Shown piece after piece: positions 5,240-17,471 of a DNA stretch of 64,000 nucleotides. The stretch lies in contig JAQTPC010000004.1 in NCBI GenBank assembly GCA_028713005.1, forward strand, positions 2,745 to 66,744, given 5' to 3'. The translations under genes and the position numbers were made by a program. Below the pieces are notes generated by a model. The model saw nothing but the letters and a program-made list of their open reading frames with translations. It was not told where the DNA came from and ran no database searches. How positions within the stretch are numbered: position 1 is the stretch's first letter; the number at the start of each line of letters is the position of its first letter. This stretch comes from Minisyncoccota bacterium. GTDB taxonomy: Bacteria > Patescibacteriota > Minisyncoccia > Phycocordibacterales > PALSA-1337.

Positions 5240-5278
5240 GTTTAAATATATAAATCGTCTCCTGGATGCAGTACCTAG

Positions 5279-5365
5279 CGGAGAGAGTGGGATTCGAACC
5301 CACGGTTCCCGTAAGGGAACGGCGGTTTAGTAAACCGCTGCCTTAAACCACTCAGCCATCTCTCC
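5279..5365 (-). tRNA. Type-II (long variable arm) Ser-like tRNA; anticodon loop UUACUAA gives apparent anticodon ACU
   Basis: Reverse complement folds as acceptor GGAGAGA/TCTCTCC, D-arm, anticodon stem GCGGT/ACCGC, 18-nt variable arm, T-arm GTGGG-TTCGAAT-CCCAC and discriminator G. It aligns with E. coli tRNA-Ser. A34 is unusual. Confidence 0.6.
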
Positions 5366-5464: not shown

Positions 5465-5551
5465 GGAACCGTGGTGGAGTGGTCTAACATACCTCTTTGC
5501 TAAAGAGGCAGGCCTTAACGGGCCTCGAGGGTTCGAATCCCTCCGGTTCCG
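5465..5551 (+). tRNA. tRNA-Ser (anticodon GCU)
   Basis: Acceptor GGAACCG/CGGTTCC, anticodon stem CCTCT/AGAGG with loop TTGCTAA, long variable arm, T-arm GAGGG-TTCGAAT-CCCTC, discriminator G. Confidence 0.8.
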
Positions 5552-5603
5552 CACACAATTTCTCGCTGAACCAAAAATCCTGTACATATCGTATAATACT
5601 CAT

Positions 5604-6459: not shown

Positions 6460-7304
6460 TAGAAAAGTTCTATAGGGAAAATAAGCGCGGAATGCCGTGG
6501 CGTAGCGATACCAACGCATATTACGTTGTGGTCTCTGAGATCATGCTCCAACAAACACAGGTTCATCGTGTCACGAGTAAATTCGATTCATGGATCAAGA
6601 GATTCCCCAACTGGCACGCACTTGCTACGGCTTCAACAAAAGACGTGCTCGAAGAATGGTCAGGGTTGGGATATAACAGACGAGCGCTTTTCTTAAAAAG
6701 AATTGCCGAAGCTATTACAGATAATGGAAAGACAAAAGGCGTTCTCCCGAATACCATTGATGAACTGACTAAACTTCCCGGCATCGGACCAAATACCGCT
6801 GGCTCAATCCTCGCATTTGCATTCAATGTTCCCCGCCCTTTCATTGAAACCAATATCCGTTCAGTGTATATCCATCATTTCTTTGCTGAGATTGAAAAAG
6901 TAGAGGGTAAAAAAGCTTGTAAGAAGATCGACGATAAAGAAATATTTCCTCTCGTTGAGAAAAGTCTCACTCTTGTTACCAAAAAAGGTTTCTTCAAAGA
7001 CAACACTCGCGAATGGTACTGGGCATTGATGGACTATGGATCATTTTTAAAAAAGAATTTGCCAAACCCATCGCGACAAAGTGCACATCATGTAAAGCAA
7101 AAAGCTTTTAAAGGTTCGAATCGTGAGCTTCGTAGTAAGATTCTTAAACTTATTATGAAACAGGCTTCGACTCGTGAAATGGTTGAGAAACAATTAAAGA
7201 AGGAATCATATAAATGCACAAGGGGACGGATAGGAACAAATTTAGATGCTCTAGTAAGGGAGGGATTCATCATGAGCAATATAAATGTATATAGAATTAT
7301 ATAA
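6423..7304 (+). CDS. HhH-GPD base-excision DNA glycosylase (MutY/EndoIII-like, no Fe-S cluster or NUDIX domain)
   Basis: MPWR...YYVVVSEIMLQQTQV and LPGIGPNTAGSIL (HhH-GPD) are present. The C-terminus lacks the 4-Cys cluster. Confidence 0.7.
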   Translation: MEITRINKFISIVEKFYRENKRGMPWRSDTNAYYVVVSEIMLQQTQVHRVTSKFDSWIKRFPNWHALATASTKDVLEEWSGLGYNRRALFLKRIAEAITDNGKTKGVLPNTIDELTKLPGIGPNTAGSILAFAFNVPRPFIETNIRSVYIHHFFAEIEKVEGKKACKKIDDKEIFPLVEKSLTLVTKKGFFKDNTREWYWALMDYGSFLKKNLPNPSRQSAHHVKQKAFKGSNRELRSKILKLIMKQASTREMVEKQLKKESYKCTRGRIGTNLDALVREGFIMSNINVYRII

Positions 7305-7391
7305 CTAACGTATAAATTGGTTATTGATCATTGTTCATTGGTTATTTACGTCAACTATTCATTTTACATTTTTCACTGTAAACTTTACCTT

Positions 7392-9665
7392 ATGCCCGTC
7401 ATCACTCCCGAAATCACCGTATCTGAATATTTCCGCCTAACGCCCATACAAAAAGACGCCTTGAAAAAAATAGGTGTCATCACCCTTCGCGACCTCTTGT
7501 ATCATTTTCCCACTCGTTATGGTGATACCGCTGAAGCAAAAAATATTGAGACACTCAACAAAGGCGACACTGCTGTTATATTTGGAAGAATTACCAATCT
7601 CAAAGCAAGCAAAGGTTTCAAAACCAAGATGACTATGGCGACAGCAACAGTCGAAGACGAAACCGGCAAGATCCAGTGTGTCTGGTTCAACCAGCCGTAC
7701 CTCGCCAAGATGACACCTGAGGGAGCAATGGTTCGTATCGAAGGAAAAATTTCTCAGCGAAGAAATAAAAAAGAAACTTTAGACGTAACTTCAGGCAAGC
7801 TCGTCAAAGAAGAAACTGGTGTGCTCTACTTCTCCAACCCAAAAATCGAAGTCGTCGACAAGCTTCCTATCGGCGTTGGTGACTCCCTCTTTGGCGATGA
7901 TGGCGAAGCTCATACCCTCTACCCCGTATATCCCGAATCTCGCGGCATTACTTCAAGCTGGATGTACCATGCTATCCAAAAGCTCTTCAAGAGCGGCCTT
8001 ATCGACAATATGATCGACGTGCTCCCCGAACATCTCCTCGTCAAATATCATTTGCCGAGCCTCAAGACCGCACTCATCTGGATGCATACTCCACTCAAAC
8101 GCGAAGATGCGCTCTCGGCTCGCAAACGTTTTTCTTTTGAAGAAATATTCATTATCCAACTCGGCAAGCAACAAGCACGACGTGAATATGAAAAGCATCC
8201 TGCATTCGTCATAGAACCCGACGATGCCCATGTCCGCGAATTCATCAAACGTTTTCCTTTCACTGCCACTGAAGCACAAACCAGAGCGATTGAAATGATC
8301 CTGAGTGATATGCGTCGAGAATATGCCATGTCGCGCCTCCTCGAGGGTGACGTGGGTTCAGGTAAAACAGCTGTAGCCGCTTCTGCTGCATATGCCATCA
8401 TCACTTCACGTCCACCCAAAGTTCCACGTCTCGCTGGTTCAAATCCCAATCCTCTTGCAAAAGGTTTTGTTACAGCTGGGCAAGGAAATCTCCAAGTGGC
8501 ATATATGTGCCCAACTGAAATCCTCGCCACACAGCATTTCGAATCATTCATCCAATATTTTTCATACATGCCGATACAAATCGGCCTCATCACTGGTTCT
8601 GGTTGCCGTAAATTCCCTTCAAAGATAAATCCAAAAGGCTGGACTGACATATCTCGCGCTCAACTCCTCAAATGGGTCGAGAGTGGGGACATCCATGTTC
8701 TCATTGGTACCCATGCACTCATCCAAAAGTCAGTGAAGTTCAAGAACCTCGGCCTAGCCATCATCGATGAACAGCACCGTTTCGGTACTGCACAACGCGC
8801 CAAGCTCATTCGCAAAGACACTATCGCTCCACATCTCCTTTCAATGACCGCTACGCCAATACCACGCACGCTCGCTCTCACCATGTATGGTGACCTCGAC
8901 CTTACTCTCCTCGACCAATCCCCTGTCGGTCGCAAACAGATCATTACTGAACTCGTATTACCTAACGGTCGCGATGCAGTCTATGAAAAGATGCGCACTG
9001 AACTCCAATCCGGCAGGCAAGGTTATGTCATTTGTCCTCGCATCGACGAACCAGATCCTGACAAAGAACAAGCTCTCAATGCAAAGTCTGTTAAAGAAGA
9101 AGCCAAGCGTCTCCAGGCAAAAATATTCCCTGAATATGAGGTGGGTATCATGCACAGCAAAATGTCACCTCAAGAAAAAGATCGCGTCATGGGTCAGTTC
9201 AAGCGTGGTGAGGTCACCATACTCTGTGCTACCTCAGTAGTCGAAGTTGGCGTGAACGTACCCAATGCTACCGTCATCCTCATCGAAGGTGCTGAACGCT
9301 TTGGCCTCTCTCAACTCCATCAGTTGCGTGGTCGCGTCATGCGCAGTAGCCATCAGGCACACTGTTATGTCTTTACTGAAACCACATCAGAAAAATCAAT
9401 CGCTCGCCTCAAAGCTCTGCAAAATACCAAAAATGGTTTTGAACTTGCCGAACTCGACCTCATGGCTCGTGGTGCCGGCGAACTCTCTGGCATGCGTCAG
9501 TGGGGTGTTTCTGACATAGCAATGGAAGCTCTTAAAAATCTCAAGATGGTTGAAGCTGCTCGCGAAGAAGCAGGACGACTCATCATCGAAGATATCACTC
9601 TATCGAAATATCCTGAGCTCAAAAAAGAAGTGGCTTCGAAAAAGATTGAGACGCATTTTGAGTAA
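7392..9665 (+). CDS. recG: ATP-dependent DNA helicase RecG
   Basis: N-terminal wedge domain (LTPIQKDALKKIGVITLRDLLYHFPTRY), Walker A GDVGSGKT, DEQHRFG, and the full helicase C-terminus. A ~25-aa insert follows Walker A. The start is taken at an internal Met of the long ORF. Confidence 0.85.
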   Translation: MPVITPEITVSEYFRLTPIQKDALKKIGVITLRDLLYHFPTRYGDTAEAKNIETLNKGDTAVIFGRITNLKASKGFKTKMTMATATVEDETGKIQCVWFNQPYLAKMTPEGAMVRIEGKISQRRNKKETLDVTSGKLVKEETGVLYFSNPKIEVVDKLPIGVGDSLFGDDGEAHTLYPVYPESRGITSSWMYHAIQKLFKSGLIDNMIDVLPEHLLVKYHLPSLKTALIWMHTPLKREDALSARKRFSFEEIFIIQLGKQQARREYEKHPAFVIEPDDAHVREFIKRFPFTATEAQTRAIEMILSDMRREYAMSRLLEGDVGSGKTAVAASAAYAIITSRPPKVPRLAGSNPNPLAKGFVTAGQGNLQVAYMCPTEILATQHFESFIQYFSYMPIQIGLITGSGCRKFPSKINPKGWTDISRAQLLKWVESGDIHVLIGTHALIQKSVKFKNLGLAIIDEQHRFGTAQRAKLIRKDTIAPHLLSMTATPIPRTLALTMYGDLDLTLLDQSPVGRKQIITELVLPNGRDAVYEKMRTELQSGRQGYVICPRIDEPDPDKEQALNAKSVKEEAKRLQAKIFPEYEVGIMHSKMSPQEKDRVMGQFKRGEVTILCATSVVEVGVNVPNATVILIEGAERFGLSQLHQLRGRVMRSSHQAHCYVFTETTSEKSIARLKALQNTKNGFELAELDLMARGAGELSGMRQWGVSDIAMEALKNLKMVEAAREEAGRLIIEDITLSKYPELKKEVASKKIETHFE

Positions 9666-10338: not shown

Positions 10339-11010
10339 ATGAAAAACAGAAAATCCCGACCCGCCGGCACAAATCCCAACTATCGTTTGGGAAGAACCAA
10401 CGGGCACCACATGCAAATCCCCCGTTTGGATTTCCCGCGGATCAAGCTCGGCTCGAACAAATACTGGCCAGCAATCAGTCGCCGGATTCGTTCGCGAATC
10501 AAATCAATCAAGAATAGCACGCAGCGCTCATTGGCTGAGCAAGGTCGCAAAAATGCTGACCTCGTCGTGTCGAAATTGAACCGGGCAAACGTAAACCTGC
10601 TCCATCTCATCGGCCACACAAATGGCTTCATGATGAATATTGAGCGTTACACCGAACACCATTTCGAAAAACTGTGCAGCAAGAAGGAGTTGCAGCACAT
10701 TTCAGTTCGAAATGCTGACGTGCATACCGTGTTTGTCATCGAACGTTTTGGCGACATTCAAACATCAGGCACCATTTGCATCTCACTCATGGACATGCAA
10801 ATCGTGCTCACTCGACAAGAATGGTCTGACCGATTCCAAACGATGTATCACCGATTGCTCACAGCCGGTGAGCTGCGTTTCATTGATCAACCTTCCATTC
10901 TGGAAAAGCTCGACAAACTCAGGACCCCAAATATGATCTTTATGGAACTGCAGATACGAATCACGATTCAAGAAATCGAACGTCGCGAACGTGAAATCTG
11001 CTCAACTTAA
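10339..11010 (+). CDS. Hypothetical protein (orphan), GC-rich segment
   Basis: ORF only. A TTGACA-containing promoter-like sequence and a GCGCAC-G-GTGCGC palindrome lie upstream. Confidence 0.3.
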   Translation: MKNRKSRPAGTNPNYRLGRTNGHHMQIPRLDFPRIKLGSNKYWPAISRRIRSRIKSIKNSTQRSLAEQGRKNADLVVSKLNRANVNLLHLIGHTNGFMMNIERYTEHHFEKLCSKKELQHISVRNADVHTVFVIERFGDIQTSGTICISLMDMQIVLTRQEWSDRFQTMYHRLLTAGELRFIDQPSILEKLDKLRTPNMIFMELQIRITIQEIERREREICST

Positions 11011-11164
11011 TTATCTGTCTATCAACCCAACGCACGTGCGTTGGGTTTTTATTTTTACACGCAAGCCAATAATACATCTATTTGTCCGCCCTCCTGGATT
11101 CGTGTCTCCATCGACACGCTCCACTGAGCGCCAATGACCCCAGAGGGCTTTTAGTGATTGATTG

Positions 11165-11238
11165 TCCGCCCTCTTGGATTCGAACCAAGGACCCCAGAGG
11201 TATAAGCTCTGTGCTCTAACCAACTGAGCTAAGGGCGG
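11165..11238 (-). tRNA. tRNA-Ile-like with anticodon UAU (loop CUUAUAC)
   Basis: Reverse complement CCGCCCT-TA-GCTC-AGTTGGTTA-GAGC-A-CAGAG-CTTATAC-CTCTG-GGGTC-CTTGG-TTCGAAT-CCAAG-AGGGCGG-A forms a canonical cloverleaf. Confidence 0.7.
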
Positions 11239-11378
11239 ATTTGCCTCAGCTGTTTAACTAACCAAAACAGCTAAGGGCGGTGTTGGTTCAATCATCATAA
11301 TGTAAACCGACCAGAGAAACAACTGTAAAATATAGAAAGAAAAGAGCCCTAGAAAATCCAGAGCTCTTCGTGGAATAA

Positions 11379-11762
11379 CTATACTGAAATGAGCGGCGCA
11401 CGCAAAGAATTTTCTGGTGGCTCGAAAAGCTTCTGCGGACGAAGACACTCGACTAATTCTTGTCTAACTGCCAAAATCTTTCCTGAAAGACCGCTCGATT
11501 GCAGTGATGCTACAAAAACGAGGAGGGTAAACTCGTTCGGCAACTCCAAGACTTTTCCGGCTTTAATAAAATCTTTTTCAGACTGCGACCGAAAGCCAGT
11601 AACATCTTTAGCTACTGAACATAACGGATGGAATACCGAAACATCTTCACATACCAGCTCAATCTTGGAGCACAGATGCAACTCTCCTGAGGGCATCAAT
11701 CTACATTCCCAGCGATACTTAACCATGTCTCGGCAACAAGTAAAGAAATATGGAATTCTCAT
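11379..11762 (-). CDS. Hypothetical protein (weak call)
   Basis: ORFs overlap on both strands here. The minus-strand ORF has the more protein-like composition. No homology recognised. Confidence 0.2.
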   Translation of the reverse strand: MRIPYFFTCCRDMVKYRWECRLMPSGELHLCSKIELVCEDVSVFHPLCSVAKDVTGFRSQSEKDFIKAGKVLELPNEFTLLVFVASLQSSGLSGKILAVRQELVECLRPQKLFEPPENSLRAPLISV

Positions 11763-11821
11763 AAAGATCCTTTTGTTGATTGTTTAATGAAATCCTACTC
11801 CACTTACATAAACAGTCAAGG

Positions 11822-11852
11822 CAACAAAAAGCCACCCTACGGTGGTCTTTTT
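11822..11852. terminator. Bidirectional terminator downstream of ftsH
   Basis: AAAAAGCCACCCTACGGTGGTCTTTTT hairpin with flanking A/T runs. Confidence 0.5.
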
Positions 11853-11863
11853 AAATTTCCTAT

Positions 11864-13786
11864 TTAGACAACCTTTGCTTCCCTTTTGAGCGGGATACCC
11901 TGCGCAACGATGATTTTTTCATATTCTTCACGCTCGATTGTCTCTGTCTCAATGAGGCGCTTTGAAACTGCTTCAAAAGCCTTTTTGTGCTCTGCGAGCG
12001 TCGCAATCGCACGTTCACGAGCTTCAGTCATAATCTTTGAAACTTCACTATCGATCTCACTAGCAACTTTCTCTGAATATTCACGCTCAGCAACACCCAT
12101 TCCAAACATGACACGGCCTTGGGCACTCTCGAGAGCGATTGGGCCGATCTTATCTGACATGCCATACCGAGTGACCATATCGCGCGCGAGAGCAGTTGAG
12201 ACTTGGAGATCGTTCGATGCACCAGTAGTGATATCACCGAAGACCATTTTCTCTGCAACATATCCACCGAGTGACATAGCAATATCATCAAGGAACTCAT
12301 TGCGAGACTGGAGCTTACGTTCTTCAAAAGGCAATTTCAATGTATACCCTGCAGCACGACCACGAGAGATAATAGATATCTTGTGCACAGGATCAGCATG
12401 CGGAAGTACCGATGCGACGATAGCGTGACCAGCTTCGTGATATGCAGTAATCTCTTTTTCCTTTGGTGAGAGAACGTGACTCTTGCGCTCAGGACCGAGC
12501 ATAACTTTTTCGATAGAGCGGATGAGATCGAACTGACCGATCGTCTTTCTCTCTTCACGAGCAGCGAGGATAGCTGCTTCATTCATGAGACTAGCGAGAT
12601 CAGCACCAGAGAATCCTGGTGTACGTTCAGCGACTACTTTGAGATTGAAGTCCTCTGCAAACTGCTTTTTCTTTGAGTGCACGGTGAGGATAGCCTCGCG
12701 ATCAGCACGATCAGGAAGATCAATGGTTACGCGGCGATCAAAACGGCCTGGACGGAGGAGCGCAGGGTCAAGCACATCAGGACGATTTGTTGCAGCCATA
12801 ACTATGACTTTTTGATTCTGTTCAAAGCCGTCCATCTCGACGAGGATCTGGTTCAATGTCTGTTCACGCTCATCGTTGCCACCACCCGTACCTGAGCCAC
12901 GTGCACGACCGACAGCGTCGATCTCATCGACAAATACAATAGCTGGAGCCGCTTGCTTTGCCATATGGAAGAGGTCGCGGACGCGAGAAGCACCAACACC
13001 GACGAACATCTCGACGAACTCTGAGCCAGAGATAGAGAAGAATGCCACTCCCGCCTCACCTGCCACTGCACGAGCAAGAAGTGTCTTACCTGTACCCGGT
13101 GCGCCCATGAGGAGCACGCCCTTTGGAATCTCTGCACCGATATCGATGAACTTTTTTGGATTTTTGAGGAAGTCGACGATCTCTGAGAGCTCTTGTTTTG
13201 CTTCTTTTGCACCAGCAACATCCTTGAATGTTACCTTCTGCTTTGTATCATCTGGGAGCGTGATACGCGCCTTTGACTGACCAAACGACATCGCTTGCAT
13301 ACCTGCGCCACGCATCTGACGAGAGAGCATCCAGATAAAGAGTGCGAGGAAAAGGAGAGGAATTATAAATGGTGCGAGCTGTCCTACCCAATACCAGAAG
13401 CCAGATGGCGAGATAACACTGATAGTTGTAGAACCGAGGTCGGCAGAAGTTACACCAAAACGACTCAAACTGTCAGTGAGAGAGGCGTCGGTCTCACGCT
13501 GGGTTGTTTTGACTGTCTTGTCTTTGTACTGTGCGACAACTTCAGTGTCCTGGATGGTGAGTGAAGTAACCAAACCTTTCTTTATATCCTGCGCGAGTGA
13601 AGAAAGTGGTACTGATGTGCCTGTTGTTGATTTGCCGGAAAACTCCGCATAAAGCGTCGTAATGATCAAAAATATGATAATGACTGTAGCGATTGAATTT
13701 AAGAAATTCATCTTTGGGAAACCCTTTCCCTTCTTGCCTTGAGGCGCATTTTGGCTGTTTTTCGGTGTATTATTTTGGGGATTCAT
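11864..13786 (-). CDS. ftsH: ATP-dependent zinc metalloprotease FtsH
   Basis: Walker [19 protein letters not shown] zinc motif, and N-terminal TM segments. Confidence 0.9.
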
Positions 13787-13984
13787 AGAGGTTGATTATA
13801 GCCTCAAATGAGGACATGTGACAACTCGTTGGCACGATGTCCGAGTGCAGAGGCTATATGAGCAAAGCGAATATAGCCTCAAGTGAGGATTTGTGGAAGC
13901 TCGCTTACATGTTGTAATAAGGTAAAGGAAATAAAAAGAGCGCACACTATCAAATGTAGTATGCGCCTTGAAAAGACAACCTCA

Positions 13985-14512
13985 TTAACGAGAACGAAAG
14001 ATGACTCGGAGAATTGGAAGCTGCTCCTCAAGCCGGATAAAGAAAATCCGGAAAAGACTAAACTTCCGAACGTAGTCGAGTTCATTAACCCGAACAACAC
14101 CACATCGCGGACAAGTTGCGATACACCAGCACTCATGCCAGCCATGGCTGTGTAGATCATTTTGAGAACGATCAGTCGAATACTCCGGTGTCCCGAAGAG
14201 TATCCGCATGAACGGCGCCCGAGCGATGAACCAGCCAGCAGAACGAGCGTGTTTGATCCGCAACAACGGATCAGTTTCCCGAAGAGTGACCGATCGTCCA
14301 ACGCGCCATTCGCGTTCACGCTTCGATCCGCATGTAGGGCATTTCTTGGATGTTTTTCCTTCGATCTTGGTCGGTTCGGGTGGCAACTGTGTCGCCCGTT
14401 GACGATGATGCATTCGACTAGCTGCTGCCAGCGATTTCTTCAATGTATTATCGGAGACCATAAATAAGCCTCCCCTCTTTCTGGTGTGAACCAGATGAAC
14501 CAACGCCTCCAC
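13985..14512 (-). CDS. Hypothetical Cys-containing protein (two CPxCG motifs) in GC-rich patch; may be non-coding
   Basis: KCPTCGS...CPRCG lie 75 aa apart. ORFs overlap on both strands, and the DNA contains internal repeats (tcccgaagagt x2, atccgcatg x2). Confidence 0.2.
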   Translation of the reverse strand: MEALVHLVHTRKRGGLFMVSDNTLKKSLAAASRMHHRQRATQLPPEPTKIEGKTSKKCPTCGSKREREWRVGRSVTLRETDPLLRIKHARSAGWFIARAPFMRILFGTPEYSTDRSQNDLHSHGWHECWCIATCPRCGVVRVNELDYVRKFSLFRIFFIRLEEQLPILRVIFRSR

Positions 14513-14635
14513 GTGTGGTTATAATGTTCATAGTTTTTTGATGTAAATGTATCTAACTCCAAAATATAAATTACCACATGGAATGGTTATAGTCAATAAA
14601 AGAAAACACCGACTAAAGCCGGCTTTTTTAATGTG

Positions 14636-14999
14636 TGGAGATGGGCGGAATTGAACCGCCGTGCAATCGAAGTTCGTCGAGCGACTCTACGGTGATAGAA
14701 TCCTTTGAAGTTTAATGACTATGCTAACAAAGAAAACAAAGCACATAGTCACGATCTCATTGTTTCAGGAGATAGAGTGAGAAGCTCTATCTACCCTACA
14801 TCCAAGTTATTACGCCTTGCTTACTGTTAGGATCCCAGTGAGTAGACGGCCTCGTTAGACGAGAGCGAATTGAAAGTCTTTGACTCCAAAAAATGGAGAA
14901 ACAATAGATTTTGCAATTGGGTTTTCCAGCGGATTTACGAGTCACTGGTGCTCGCACCGCACGAACGAAAACTGTCGATTGTCGATGCCTTGCATCCCC
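14636..14999 (-). ncRNA. ssrA: tmRNA (SsrA)
   Basis: 5' GGGGATGCAAGGCATCGACAATCGACAG and 3' ...GGCGG-TTCAATT-CCGCC-CATCTCC-A. The acceptor stem GGGGAUG/CAUCUCC carries the G3:U70 alanine identity pair. It lies adjacent to smpB. The candidate tag frame GCA AAA ... GCU CUC GUC UAA runs from RNA nt 86. Confidence 0.8.
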
Positions 15000-15098
15000 G
15001 AATTTTGCACCTCAAAATTCGTGCCAAAAGACTTTTTATTGCGCGAGCAATTAAAAGTTTTTGGCCAGAATCACAGAGGTTAGTGGTATACTTAGTTT

Positions 15099-15539
15099 TC
15101 AACGATCCTTCATAGCCCTACCCATTTCCCTATCATCCTCACGTTTCTTTGTCGTCTCTCTCTTATCATACTTCTTTTTTCCTTTGACGACAGCGACCGT
15201 GACCTTGATAAGGTTGTTTTTAAGATACATTGAAATCGGCACTACTGTCAATCCCTTACTGACATCTGCAATTTGAGCGATCTCTTTCTTTCTCATGATC
15301 AAGCGGCGGTGACGACGAGGCTCATAGTCTTTAGGTGTATTTTTCTCCTGATATGGAGAAATGAGCATGCCCTGAATGAATGCTTCACCACCCTTTACCA
15401 ACACATATGCTCCATCGAGCGAACCACGCTTTGCTCTAAGCGACTTTACTTCAAAACCGAGTAGCTCGATACCTGCCTCGTATTTCTCGAGGATCTCGTA
15501 TTCAAAATGGGCTTTGCGATAATCAATCAAAACTGCCAT
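15099..15539 (-). CDS. smpB: SsrA-binding protein SmpB
   Basis: YEAGIELLGFEVKSLRAKRGSLDGAYV...ISPY...RRHRRLIMRKKEI matches the SmpB consensus. Confidence 0.85.
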   Translation of the reverse strand: MAVLIDYRKAHFEYEILEKYEAGIELLGFEVKSLRAKRGSLDGAYVLVKGGEAFIQGMLISPYQEKNTPKDYEPRRHRRLIMRKKEIAQIADVSKGLTVVPISMYLKNNLIKVTVAVVKGKKKYDKRETTKKREDDREMGRAMKDR

Positions 15540-15565
15540 AGTGGAAGTATAGTATACTTTTACCT

Positions 15566-16645
15566 ATGAATCACGAAACAACCTGGAACCTCTATTCATC
15601 AAACGAAGAAGCATGGGCAGCTATGCTCGCCGACTGCGCACAAGCAAAAGAAAGCATCGTCCTCGAACAATACATCTTTGTGGCGGACGACTTCGGCAAA
15701 AAGCTCATAGACATCTGCACCGAACGTGCGGCCCAGGGTGTCAAAGTCCGTTTCCTCTGGGATGCAGCTGGCAGTTTCACTCTCTGGGGTTCAAATATTG
15801 CCGAAGATCTCAAAAAGAAAGGTATTGAACTTATCTTCTGGAAGACACTTATCCCTGACTATTCAAAGATAGAAAATTTTCGTGCATGGTTCTTCCGCAA
15901 TCACCGCCGTACCCTCGTCATCGATGAACGCATCGGCTATACAGGCAGTATGTGCGTCTACGAACCAATGAAAAGTTGGCGTGATACGAACCTCCGTCTC
16001 GAAGGGTCAGTTGTGGAAGAGATGAGGAATGCATTTGATCGCATGTGGGCTCGGGCCACTCGTGCACAAGCCATGCCTGAACGTATCCATGTTCGTAACC
16101 ATGAATTCCGCTACATCACCAACTATCCTGCCCCCCGCAGACGTCATATATACACAGAACTCATCGAAGCTGTCCGTTCAGCGCGCAAATATATCTATAT
16201 TACCAATCCTTATTTTGTACCGACACGCCGGCTCGTGCGCATCTTTCGTTTGGCAGCACAACGTGGTGTCGATGTACGCATCATCATCCCAGAAAATTCA
16301 AACTATTACGCTGTGGACCTCGGGGCGCGATCATATTTCAATACCTTGCTCTCTTCAGGAGTACGTATATTTCTATATTCTGGGAATATGATCCATGCAA
16401 AGACTGCAGTCATTGATGGTGAATGGGCAACAGTCGGCAGCATGAACCTCGATCGTGTGAGCCTGCTCTACAACTTTGAAGCGAACATCGTCAGTCGCAA
16501 TGGGCGATTTGCAGAGGAGCTCGCCGCGCTCTTTGTGCGTGATATGCACGATTCCAAAGAAGTCTTGTACGAGGAATGGAAGAAAAGATTCTTCATCGAA
16601 AAGATACCTGAAAAGCTGATCACTCTCGTCCGAAAGTTTTTATAA
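15566..16645 (+). CDS. Phospholipase D / cardiolipin synthase-family protein (one degenerate and one canonical HKD motif)
   Basis: Second motif HAKTAVIDGEWATVGSMNLD. First motif is H-R-R-TLVIDERIGYTGSM. Confidence 0.7.
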   Translation: MNHETTWNLYSSNEEAWAAMLADCAQAKESIVLEQYIFVADDFGKKLIDICTERAAQGVKVRFLWDAAGSFTLWGSNIAEDLKKKGIELIFWKTLIPDYSKIENFRAWFFRNHRRTLVIDERIGYTGSMCVYEPMKSWRDTNLRLEGSVVEEMRNAFDRMWARATRAQAMPERIHVRNHEFRYITNYPAPRRRHIYTELIEAVRSARKYIYITNPYFVPTRRLVRIFRLAAQRGVDVRIIIPENSNYYAVDLGARSYFNTLLSSGVRIFLYSGNMIHAKTAVIDGEWATVGSMNLDRVSLLYNFEANIVSRNGRFAEELAALFVRDMHDSKEVLYEEWKKRFFIEKIPEKLITLVRKFL

Positions 16646-16682
16646 AATAAAAAACCACCTTACATAAGGTGGTTTTTTATTT
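16646..16682. terminator. Bidirectional terminator
   Basis: AAAAACCACCTTACATAAGGTGGTTTTTT. Confidence 0.5.
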
Positions 16683-16691
16683 TTACAAATT

Positions 16692-17471
16692 TTATTGTAC
16701 CGCTACTCCTTTTACGATCTGACCGGTCTCATCGATGATTCCTTTCTGGCGAGATGCGCTACACGTATAGAATTCGCTGGTCGACTTGTTATATGCCATC
16801 ACCTGACCCTTGCCGCCAACGCCGAGGTTGAAGTTTGACTGAACGCATGGTGAGCTGCCTGCACAAAGCGACGCTGGCGCATATGCCCAAGCACTATAGC
16901 CTGCTGTACCGGTCTTCAAGTGCGTATTATCGCCACAGGTGTGACTATCGTCACTGGTGATACCTGTTGTTCTCCATGTACAAGCCTCTTTACCGAGACA
17001 GATGCGTATAACGTGGCTACGACAGTAATATTCGATGGTATCACCGCCACCACTTGAGCCCCAGTCATTGATGTTACCGTCTGAAACTGTTCCCATTCTG
17101 CCATCACTACCACACTCTTGAGCAGCTGCACTTGGAGCTGACCATTTTACTTTTCCAGTACTGTCAGCAGCAGTGAGAAAATATCCTGCTGAAACTACTG
17201 AATTTGAAGTACTTGTTGAAACGATGAGGTTTGGTGCAATCAAGTTACCGACAACACCGAGACCACCGTCAATCTGAAGTGAATCTAATTTTTCTTGGAT
17301 GGTGGTATTACCATTGAATCCAACATTGATAGGTGCGAGAACGTTATTTGAAGGTGGGTTAGCTGGAGCATTGGTCCAGTTTGCAGCTGCAGCAACAAGA
17401 GCTGAAGCGCCGAGGAATCCACCAATAATGAGACTTGAAGCTGCGAGCACTGATTGACGAGTAAGTTTCAT
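16692..17471 (-). CDS. Secreted Cys-rich hypothetical protein (signal peptide)
   Basis: N-terminal signal/TM (LAASSLIIGGFLGASALVAAAA). Multiple Cys residues and a Gly/Ser-rich composition. No family recognised. Confidence 0.45.
   Translation of the reverse strand: MKLTRQSVLAASSLIIGGFLGASALVAAAANWTNAPANPPSNNVLAPINVGFNGNTTIQEKLDSLQIDGGLGVVGNLIAPNLIVSTSTSNSVVSAGYFLTAADSTGKVKWSAPSAAAQECGSDGRMGTVSDGNINDWGSSGGGDTIEYYCRSHVIRICLGKEACTWRTTGITSDDSHTCGDNTHLKTGTAGYSAWAYAPASLCAGSSPCVQSNFNLGVGGKGQVMAYNKSTSEFYTCSASRQKGIIDETGQIVKGVAVQ

Follow-up and report, generated by a model that had tools for sequence, protein, structure and literature searches.

The 64,000-nucleotide (nt) stretch of DNA analyzed here, called the window, comes from a Paceibacteria-type Patescibacterium; all window coordinates refer to it. 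On its minus strand lie, in order, smpB, the transfer-messenger RNA (tmRNA) gene ssrA, an interval of 848 nt (positions 13787 to 14634), and ftsH. An earlier note on this DNA had described the interval as a spacer running from the 3' end of ssrA, at 14635, to ftsH, and ARAGORN, Rfam, and the list of open reading frames (ORFs) bear out those limits. What does it contain? It probably holds a complete gene unit for a zinc-ribbon protein together with the control region of ftsH, the protein belonging to a rare Paceibacteria family that is sited before ftsH and whose function we infer. Along the minus strand, the ssrA terminator comes first. A promoter-like site follows it, and then come a leader of about 105 nt that carries a strong Shine-Dalgarno (SD) sequence, a 158-codon gene, that gene's own terminator, and a hairpin promoter module.

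A protein-coding gene under purifying selection

The GC-rich segment of the interval is a real protein-coding gene under purifying selection. The earlier note had seen overlapping ORFs on both strands and had offered a zinc-ribbon gene as one of three readings, next to a decayed integrative element and a structured noncoding RNA. The ORFs are present, one of them with two CPxCG motifs (CPTCG and CPRCG), and the gene is the reading that holds: selection, a conserved start, SD sequence, and terminator, and 14 remote homologs all speak for it. Conserved protein-coding homologs cover the region, which counts against the other two readings. In a database of 5.8 billion proteins, the minus-strand ORF has just three relatives, with identities of 100, 87, and 78%, all on short metagenome contigs and each followed by ftsH. 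An identical contig occurs in SRR22315508. Codon-aware comparison places 65 of 91, 82 of 124, and 77 of 123 differences at third codon positions, with a synonymous divergence (dS) of 1.0 to 2.3, a nonsynonymous divergence (dN) of 0.08 to 0.14, and a dN/dS ratio of 0.06 to 0.08 (0.03 to 0.05 in the C-terminal half). In one lineage, L004, 5 codons are inserted in frame. The plus-strand ORF at 14162 to 14467 is open in the window only, with 6 stops in L001 and 6 in L004, and the alternative +1 sense frame does not stay open in L093 or L091.

Local G+C richness had been noted at 14160 to 14460, and the figure is indeed high: 53.2%, compared with 43.3% window-wide, in the 99th percentile among 301-nt windows. 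The explanation lies in the protein, which is rich in Arg (21 residues), Gly, Ala, Pro, Cys, and Trp. The G+C content at codon position 2 is 0.49 in the zinc-ribbon gene and 0.41 in ftsH, and that at position 3 (GC3), 0.48 against 0.45, is not foreign looking.

We place the start codon at the ATG at 14461, because a conserved SD sequence, GAGGGGAGG, sits 7 nt upstream of it. Some gene callers prefer an in-frame GTG extension, which varies at all codon positions and whose first 22 nt are invariant as nucleotides, not the behavior of coding sequence at a dS above 1; both features argue for the ATG. The promoter-like site upstream is conserved in L001, L004, and L093 and has a variant TGGTAGTCT box in L091; its -10 element matches 3 of 6 positions, under the threshold of the promoter scan, so that it is called a promoter by conservation only. 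Within the leader, a block at 14491 to 14520 (AACCACACGTGGAGGCGTTGGTTCATCTGG, minus strand) shows no change across three lineages with saturated synonymous sites (dS above 1), and it is absent from the more distant L093. RNAalifold gives the leader two small hairpins with one compensatory pair, from few sequences, and the single-sequence fold is unexceptional (z = -1.0). A GC-rich hairpin and T-run equivalent to the window's terminator follow the gene in every lineage. An SD-like 4-mer precedes only 4 of 23 long ORFs in the window, by a crude count that took the first ATG of each ORF; the zinc-ribbon gene, with its strong SD and long leader, is thus unusual for this genome.

A rare family with a predicted split zinc ribbon

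By the homology searches, the protein belongs to a very rare, fast-evolving, unannotated family restricted to Paceibacteria-type Patescibacteria. A profile of the three close sequences, run against 1.84 billion representatives, retrieved 14 proteins at an E value of 1e-3 or lower, which are 140 to 199 amino acids (aa) long and 25 to 42% identical to the window protein. When the close alignment was used for pattern scans of GTDB genomes and JGI metagenomes, no match came up; a sub-alignment of the family added one further locus. The sole publicly named member is called "hypothetical protein." Divergence is fast: the window and L093 proteins are 40% identical, while FtsH of the same pair is 90% and SmpB 81% identical. 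All members are basic (pI 9.3 to 10.8), and none has a transmembrane segment, except for one hydrophobic stretch in member P0014 (maximum 19-residue hydropathy, 1.98). The window protein itself is soluble, with a net charge of about +15.

The family alignment opens with a first knuckle, TK-x-x-G-x-TSK-x-CP-x-C, followed by R-x-R; a PR-x-S / WW region occupies its middle part, and the second block reads PWFEC-x-x-IATCP-x-CG-x-x-RV-x-E-x-DY-x-RQFG-x-x-RL. C41, P42, C44, R48, R50, C117, R132, and F134 are invariant; T37, R73, W108, C111, A115, E127, and R138 are nearly so. An AlphaFold2 model from 16 sequences (pLDDT 81, pTM 0.63) consists of an N-terminal helix, a small sheet (residues 49-58, 108-117, 121-124, and 130-133) that bears both knuckles, and C-terminal helices. 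The knuckles, C41-P-T-C44 and C117-P-R-C120, are flanked in the model by strands 49-58, 108-117, and 121-124, as a zinc-ribbon fold requires. The predicted structure is a zinc ribbon split by an insert of about 65 residues, with both Cys knuckles on beta-hairpins of one sheet.

Does the protein resemble anything already described? It reaches the threshold of no family in Pfam or NCBIfam and has no significant match in PHROGs, and the other three overlapping ORFs of the interval have no match in the Pfam, NCBIfam, PHROGs, or PADLOC scans. The sole PADLOC match, to LmuB, comes from one member (11.4 bits, E = 0.023), with none for three others. Profile searches of the PDB with the 3- and 16-sequence alignments gave nothing meaningful, and Foldseek found no fold match in the PDB (best E, 0.49) or BFVD (best E, 0.13). 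Two families are approached below threshold: DUF6255 (PF19768), at 23.7 bits against a cutoff of 25 and over residues 104 to 127 only, with 3 of 16 family members matching at an E value of 0.1 or lower, and the TNB domain (PF07282), at 17.6 bits against 26.3 across 18 residues, without a RuvC match. The protein is like known zinc-ribbon domains (Pfam Zn_ribbon) in its two CPxC(G) knuckles predicted on beta-hairpins; unlike them, its knuckles stand about 65 residues apart, and its matches stay below the cutoffs and cover 18 to 24 residues around one knuckle. Likewise, its TSKxCPxCG context resembles the TS-x-x-C-x-x-CG of TnpB and Cas12f, whereas RuvC and transposase parts are lacking and the whole protein is 158 aa only. 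A literature search on FtsH and zinc ribbons in Patescibacteria, or on SD-led and leaderless genes there, found nothing relevant.

The link to ftsH

The gene is present in 12 lineages, and 11 family lineages have readable downstream DNA. In 9 of these 11, ftsH lies directly downstream on the same strand, after a gap of 104 to 242 nt. The nine are the window itself and, with the identity of their FtsH to that of the window, L001/2 (97%), L004 (94%), L093/94 (90%), L091/92 (80%), L086 (67%), L096 (66%), L090 (48%), and L087 (47%). In L095, ftsH is one gene further on, past a gene for a tetratricopeptide repeat (TPR) protein, and the L097 contig stops just past an ftsH-like start, so that ftsH is probably directly downstream there too. 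Is the gene tied to ftsH or to the end of ssrA? In L086 and L090 it lies between divergent smpB and ftsH genes; the tmRNA gene of L086 is past smpB on the other strand, and the L090 contig is too short to show one. This arrangement ties the gene to ftsH and not to the ssrA 3' end. L087 and L089 have no smpB within 1 to 2 kb upstream, and in L087 ftsH still follows directly. More widely, smpB adjoins ftsH in most of the 80 Paceibacteria loci sampled.

Several observations weigh against our reading of the gene and its ftsH link. (i) The family occurs in none of the 80 smpB loci from GTDB representatives. (ii) Close relatives with the same ssrA-to-ftsH orientation, such as L008 and L011, carry other small genes in the slot, which may itself just tolerate small accessory genes. 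(iii) Every lineage has a terminator and a separate promoter between the two genes, whose cotranscription is therefore not obligatory. (iv) In L098 the gene and its terminator are 99% identical to those of L091, and then the sequences diverge completely (L098 2050-2214, L091 660-830): L091 runs into ftsH, and L098 instead has a hairpin rich in G+C, plus a GGGGATGAATGG... stretch. A rearrangement or a chimeric assembly could explain the break. (v) On the zinc site itself, C120 is not invariant, being replaced in three members, so that the four metal-binding residues are uncertain; judging from the alignment, C111 may be the fourth ligand.

Two candidates from these comparisons were set aside. 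The membrane-anchored Cys-rich proteins of L008 and L011 were tried as distant family members and rejected by hhalign, being related to each other only, and the L098 GGGGATGAATGG... stretch was considered as a tmRNA 5' end and went unconfirmed, with no match in Rfam. The close relative L008 also has, at 7050 to 8501 (CAWKMY010000006.1), an ftsH ORF with an intein-like insertion right after Walker A (GAPGTGK, then CITGDSLIPTNKG...).

A hairpin module at the ftsH promoter

By its alignment, the sequence directly before ftsH is an undescribed, covarying, promoter-proximal hairpin element. The ftsH promoter within it, TTGTCA (13824-13819), 18 nt, and TATAAT (13800-13795), matches 11 of 12 consensus positions in the promoter scan. 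Its -10 element ends 8 nt ahead of the ATG, and the ftsH mRNA is therefore probably leaderless. In every lineage, the zinc-ribbon gene is followed by a terminator-like hairpin, a TGTATAAT-like -10 element, 8 to 25 nt without an SD sequence, and ATGAATCC, the ftsH start. Of the promoter elements in the module, the -35 sits on the inner stem and the -10 on the outer one, in the 3' arm in both cases. The fold, at -25.2 kcal/mol (z = -3.4), was matched in stability by 0 of 200 shuffles. Leaderless mRNAs may be common in this genome, to judge by its start regions.

Six copies, from the window, L001 (two in tandem), L091, L007, and L097, make up the module alignment. Compensatory changes occur in 13 of 21 pairs, and 91% of cells are paired, against 76% in shuffled alignments (0 of 500 reached it) and 28 to 50% when the alignment is slid; with the AT-rich L042 copies added, pairing is 93%, in an alignment fitted to the model. 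The inner stem is free to vary, with two conserved short motifs, YTCGGA and TCCTCRY, around it. Hardly any G-U pairs occur (1 in about 115 paired cells of the independent alignment, 1 in about 180 of the model-fitted one), a hint that the constraint acts on the DNA, or on both strands, and not on a single RNA.

Where else does the module occur? In the window, a covariance model finds it only at ftsH. Copies lie in L097 (596-699), L091 (729-825), and L001 (1803-1976), and further ones stand before other genes: in L007 (1024-1121), before a metallo-beta-lactamase/beta-CASP-like gene assigned by eye from its translation; in L042 (4640-4924), as three tandem copies before a gene for a 313-aa protein; and in L061 (6197-6299, minus strand), before a membrane-protein gene. 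The module always ends 8 to 13 nt upstream of an ATG on the same strand, and it has no match in Rfam. L007, L042, and L061 are three smpB loci without a family match in the 80-locus scan, and the module is not present at the family loci L004, L093, L086, L090, L087, and L096. There being no strict co-occurrence of module and family, the module cannot be claimed as the target of the protein. Inverted-repeat operators of the CIRCE type and 5'-leader hairpins occur at heat shock genes, and the ftsH module is like CIRCE in being an inverted repeat that overlaps a stress protease promoter. It differs in its unrelated sequence, in a stem that varies with compensation, in standing also before nonchaperone genes and in tandem, and in belonging to no Rfam family.

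The module also accounts for the most significant repeats of the interval, which the earlier note had missed. These are direct repeats of 47 nt (13794-13840 and 13869-13915; 74% identity, 75-nt spacing) and GAGGCTATA inverted repeats, both parts of the approximately 90-nt module; GAGGCTATA occurs 4 times in the window against 0.26 expected, 3 of the 4 within the interval. The upstream direct repeat is a partial module copy, whose counterpart in L001 is the 3' half of the unit nearest ftsH. The shorter repeats that had been pointed out (tcccgaagagt twice, atccgcatg twice, and a GATCCG-CAACAA-CGGATC hairpin) are all there and carry little weight as evidence. When the 477-nt ORF part is shuffled, about 1% of the shuffles attain an exact 11-mer repeat, the repeated 9-mer matches chance expectation (our own calculation, from the 9-mer pairs in the interval over 4^9), and a perfect stem of at least 6 bp arises in 56% of shuffles. 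The repeats and the hairpin lie inside the coding sequence, the two copies of each repeat fall in different reading frames of the zinc-ribbon gene, and, in the alignment, neither repeats nor hairpin are kept in relatives.

Island and noncoding RNA readings

The 3' ends of tmRNA genes are targeted by genomic islands and prophages, CP4-57 at E. coli ssrA being an example, and the interval had accordingly been suspected of being a decayed remnant of one, its GC-rich part foreign and its ORFs leftovers. The window gene does lie immediately 3' of ssrA, the gene content beside the terminator does vary among relatives, and the segment is extreme in G+C content. Other findings argue otherwise. The ORF list for 11000 to 17000 holds no integrase or recombinase, and only the 158-aa gene stands between ssrA and ftsH; a search for a direct repeat of the ssrA 3' end, as a 23-nt pattern with up to 3 mismatches, matched ssrA alone in the 64 kb. 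The codon composition is not foreign, the excess at codon position 2 reflecting amino acid composition and GC3 lying near that of ftsH; strong purifying selection acts on the gene; and in L086 and L090 the gene follows ftsH, not ssrA. Comparison of the ftsH-ssrA spacer among relatives found the gene and its ftsH link kept and the same sequence without any island signature, and we regard an integrative element here as highly improbable. A weak form of the idea survives in one place, the stretch between the ssrA terminator and the zinc-ribbon promoter, the sole indel-prone spot at the locus. It spans 173 nt without a gene in the window; its L001 and L093 counterparts measure about 1 kb and carry two small genes each. 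The extra genes of these two lineages are mutually homologous (a secreted small protein, encoded on the minus strand at L001 650-1021 and L093 4968-5360, has 123 and 130 aa, 53% identical) and ancestral by parsimony. Because L093 is the outgroup by FtsH identity, a deletion in the lineage of the window is the simplest reading.

The other suspicion was a structured noncoding RNA, whether RNase P RNA, 6S RNA, or something novel, that would fill the GC-rich segment and leave the ORFs accidental. Such an RNA might show itself by features that are seen here: ORFs that overlap on opposite strands, a local rise in G+C content, and a short perfect hairpin. Yet a cmscan of 13600 to 14700 against 4,227 Rfam families at E values up to 10 returned only noise: besides ssrA, no match reached half the gathering score of its family, and all had E values of at least 0.5. 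The substitutions are codon patterned, falling overwhelmingly at third positions; the GATCCG hairpin is destroyed in L001 and L004; and the antisense ORF is broken in relatives. An RNA of this kind is more improbable still than an island.

Mobile genes are found near ssrA elsewhere. GIY-YIG nuclease genes adjoin it in L085 (6001-6912) and L086 (1144-1386), so mobile DNA does land there in this clade, though not in the window; L085 also has a primase-type zinc-finger gene. About 3 kb upstream of smpB, L093 carries bAvd and weak RVT_1 reverse transcriptase genes (683-1459), suggestive of a diversity-generating retroelement.

Layout of the locus

The features of the interval and its flanks are collected in Table 1.

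Table 1. Features in and around the ssrA-ftsH interval of the window
Feature	Position	Strand	Details	Source
smpB	15539-15099	minus		
ssrA (tmRNA)	14635..14999	minus	tag AKSIVSPFFGVKDFQFALV*; RF00023, 105.4 bits	ARAGORN; Rfam
ssrA intrinsic terminator	14598..14623	minus	stem 14623-14608, then GTTTTCTTTT	terminator scan
Promoter-like site of zinc-ribbon gene	14568..14596	minus	TTGACT (14596-14591), 17 nt, TGgTAATTT (14576-14568)	
5' leader, about 105 nt	14462..14567	minus	invariant 30-nt block; small CUGG/CCAG hairpin; strong SD GAGGGGAGG (14469-14477)	
Zinc-ribbon protein gene (candidate metal site), 158 aa	13985..14461	minus	pI 10.4; CPTCG at residues 41-45, CPRCG at 117-121	dN/dS; homologs
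Intrinsic terminator of zinc-ribbon gene	13929..13967	minus	11-bp stem 13967-13939, then CTTTTTATTT	terminator scan
Partial upstream module copy	13869..13915	minus	promoter-like TCCACA-16-TATATT, 13897-13870	promoter scan
Hairpin-plus-promoter module, about 90 nt	13787..13876	minus	directly before ftsH; 62-nt hairpin 13858-13797	
ftsH, 640 aa	11864..13786	minus		ORF list; tblastn
ORF	13985-14512	minus		ORF list
ORF	13879-14319	minus		ORF list
ORF	14162-14467	plus		ORF list
ORF	13883-14155	plus		ORF list

AAA and Peptidase_M41 domains were seen in the FtsH homolog of L004, which is 94% identical to that of the window, and the best SmpB matches (64 to 74% identical) are to uncultured bacteria and Taylorbacteria-like metagenome-assembled genomes. 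Apart from the tmRNA, the Rfam gathering scan of the window yielded a SAM riboswitch and three tRNAs and nothing else. A stretch of 625 nt (11239-11863) that separates the ftsH stop from tRNA-Ile(UAU) carries no recognizable gene; opposite-strand overlapping ORFs of 127 and 132 aa there have no Pfam match, and Rfam has no match there either. In L093 the same tRNA-Ile lies about 20 nt past ftsH. ARAGORN reports two divergent tRNA-Ser genes, at 5278-5365 (minus) and 5465-5552 (plus), one with the unusual anticodon ACT. TATAAT-like boxes stand 8 to 10 nt before several starts in the window, such as the ATGs at 15566, 31467, 33378, and 62156.

Possible functions

What might the zinc-ribbon protein do? 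Our leading candidate, held tentatively, is a regulator of ftsH expression or function that acts through DNA or RNA binding. The protein would bind nucleic acid through invariant arginines and aromatic residues displayed on a zinc-stabilized scaffold, and it would act within the smpB-ssrA-ftsH quality control neighborhood; we hold both steps with low confidence. Nucleic acid binding fits because of the charge of about +15, the five invariant or near-invariant arginines, the conserved aromatics, and the lack of a membrane segment. A place in protein quality control is suggested by the fixed position before ftsH inside a clade-typical smpB-ssrA-ftsH cluster. Close behind the ftsH regulator we rank a direct FtsH adaptor or modulator and then an accessory factor of trans-translation, with an unrelated function and merely tolerated synteny as the remainder.

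A direct partner of FtsH, whether adaptor, modulator, inhibitor, or dedicated substrate, would work by protein-protein contact and is a possible, if doubtful, alternative. It has parallels. In LapB (YciM), an FtsH adaptor, TPR repeats are combined with a rubredoxin-type zinc site, and ClpS and ClpA are an adaptor and AAA+ protease encoded as a gene pair. Like LapB, the family has a predicted Cys4-type metal site in a protein linked to FtsH, and the TPR gene before ftsH in L095 recalls the TPR and zinc makeup of LapB; like clpS, a small gene is kept upstream of an AAA+ protease gene across deep divergence, in lineages whose FtsH is just 47 to 97% identical to that of the window. The fast divergence of the protein is also typical of accessory factors. 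There are also differences. The window protein has neither sequence nor predicted fold similarity to LapB and no membrane anchor, and the FtsH link is one of synteny only; more broadly, no likeness to HflK/C (SPFH), LapB (TPR and rubredoxin), lambda CIII, or SpoVM emerged in the Pfam, NCBIfam, PDB profile, or Foldseek searches. Unlike the clpS-clpA pair, the two genes are separate transcription units with a terminator and a promoter between them, and the pair is known here from gene adjacency alone. Most relatives manage without the protein, and its very basic composition and five (near-)invariant arginines better fit the binding of nucleic acid. The same basic zinc-ribbon composition resembles small RNA-binding proteins, and a tmRNA- or ribosome-binding accessory of trans-translation would make the ftsH link a by-product of smpB-ssrA-ftsH clustering. 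In line with that, ftsH is next to smpB in most of the sampled loci, and the gene lies between ssrA and ftsH in the window and L093 and next to smpB in L086 and L090. We nevertheless think it unlikely: L087 and L089 lack a nearby upstream smpB, with ftsH still following in L087, and the searches showed no likeness to SmpB, ArfA, ArfB, or any ribosomal protein.

Returning to the ftsH regulator, a bolder version can be drawn. The protein would be a part of proteostasis control peculiar to Patescibacteria, a zinc-dependent factor, binding nucleic acid or FtsH, that couples smpB-ssrA to FtsH, for instance through ftsH regulation or delivery of tagged substrates, and the hairpin module would be a new promoter-proximal cis-regulatory class in genomes with leaderless mRNAs. 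We offer this as speculation that is more apt to fail than to stand.

Significance

Overall, a false lead has been removed from this locus, which holds neither an island nor a missing RNase P or 6S RNA, and an apparent spacer has given way to a well-supported gene that is unnamed in every source and mis-started by some gene callers. As a small hypothetical gene it is nothing out of the ordinary, yet it represents an undescribed rare family with a conserved genomic partner. Neither the gene nor the module overturns current understanding, the genomes of candidate phyla radiation bacteria holding many orphan families. This family is small, keeps to those bacteria, and is linked to ftsH. A dedicated partner or regulator of FtsH, which is an essential membrane protease, would offer a useful way into its regulation in these reduced genomes; the hairpin module, for its part, may illustrate gene control where mRNAs appear to be mostly leaderless.

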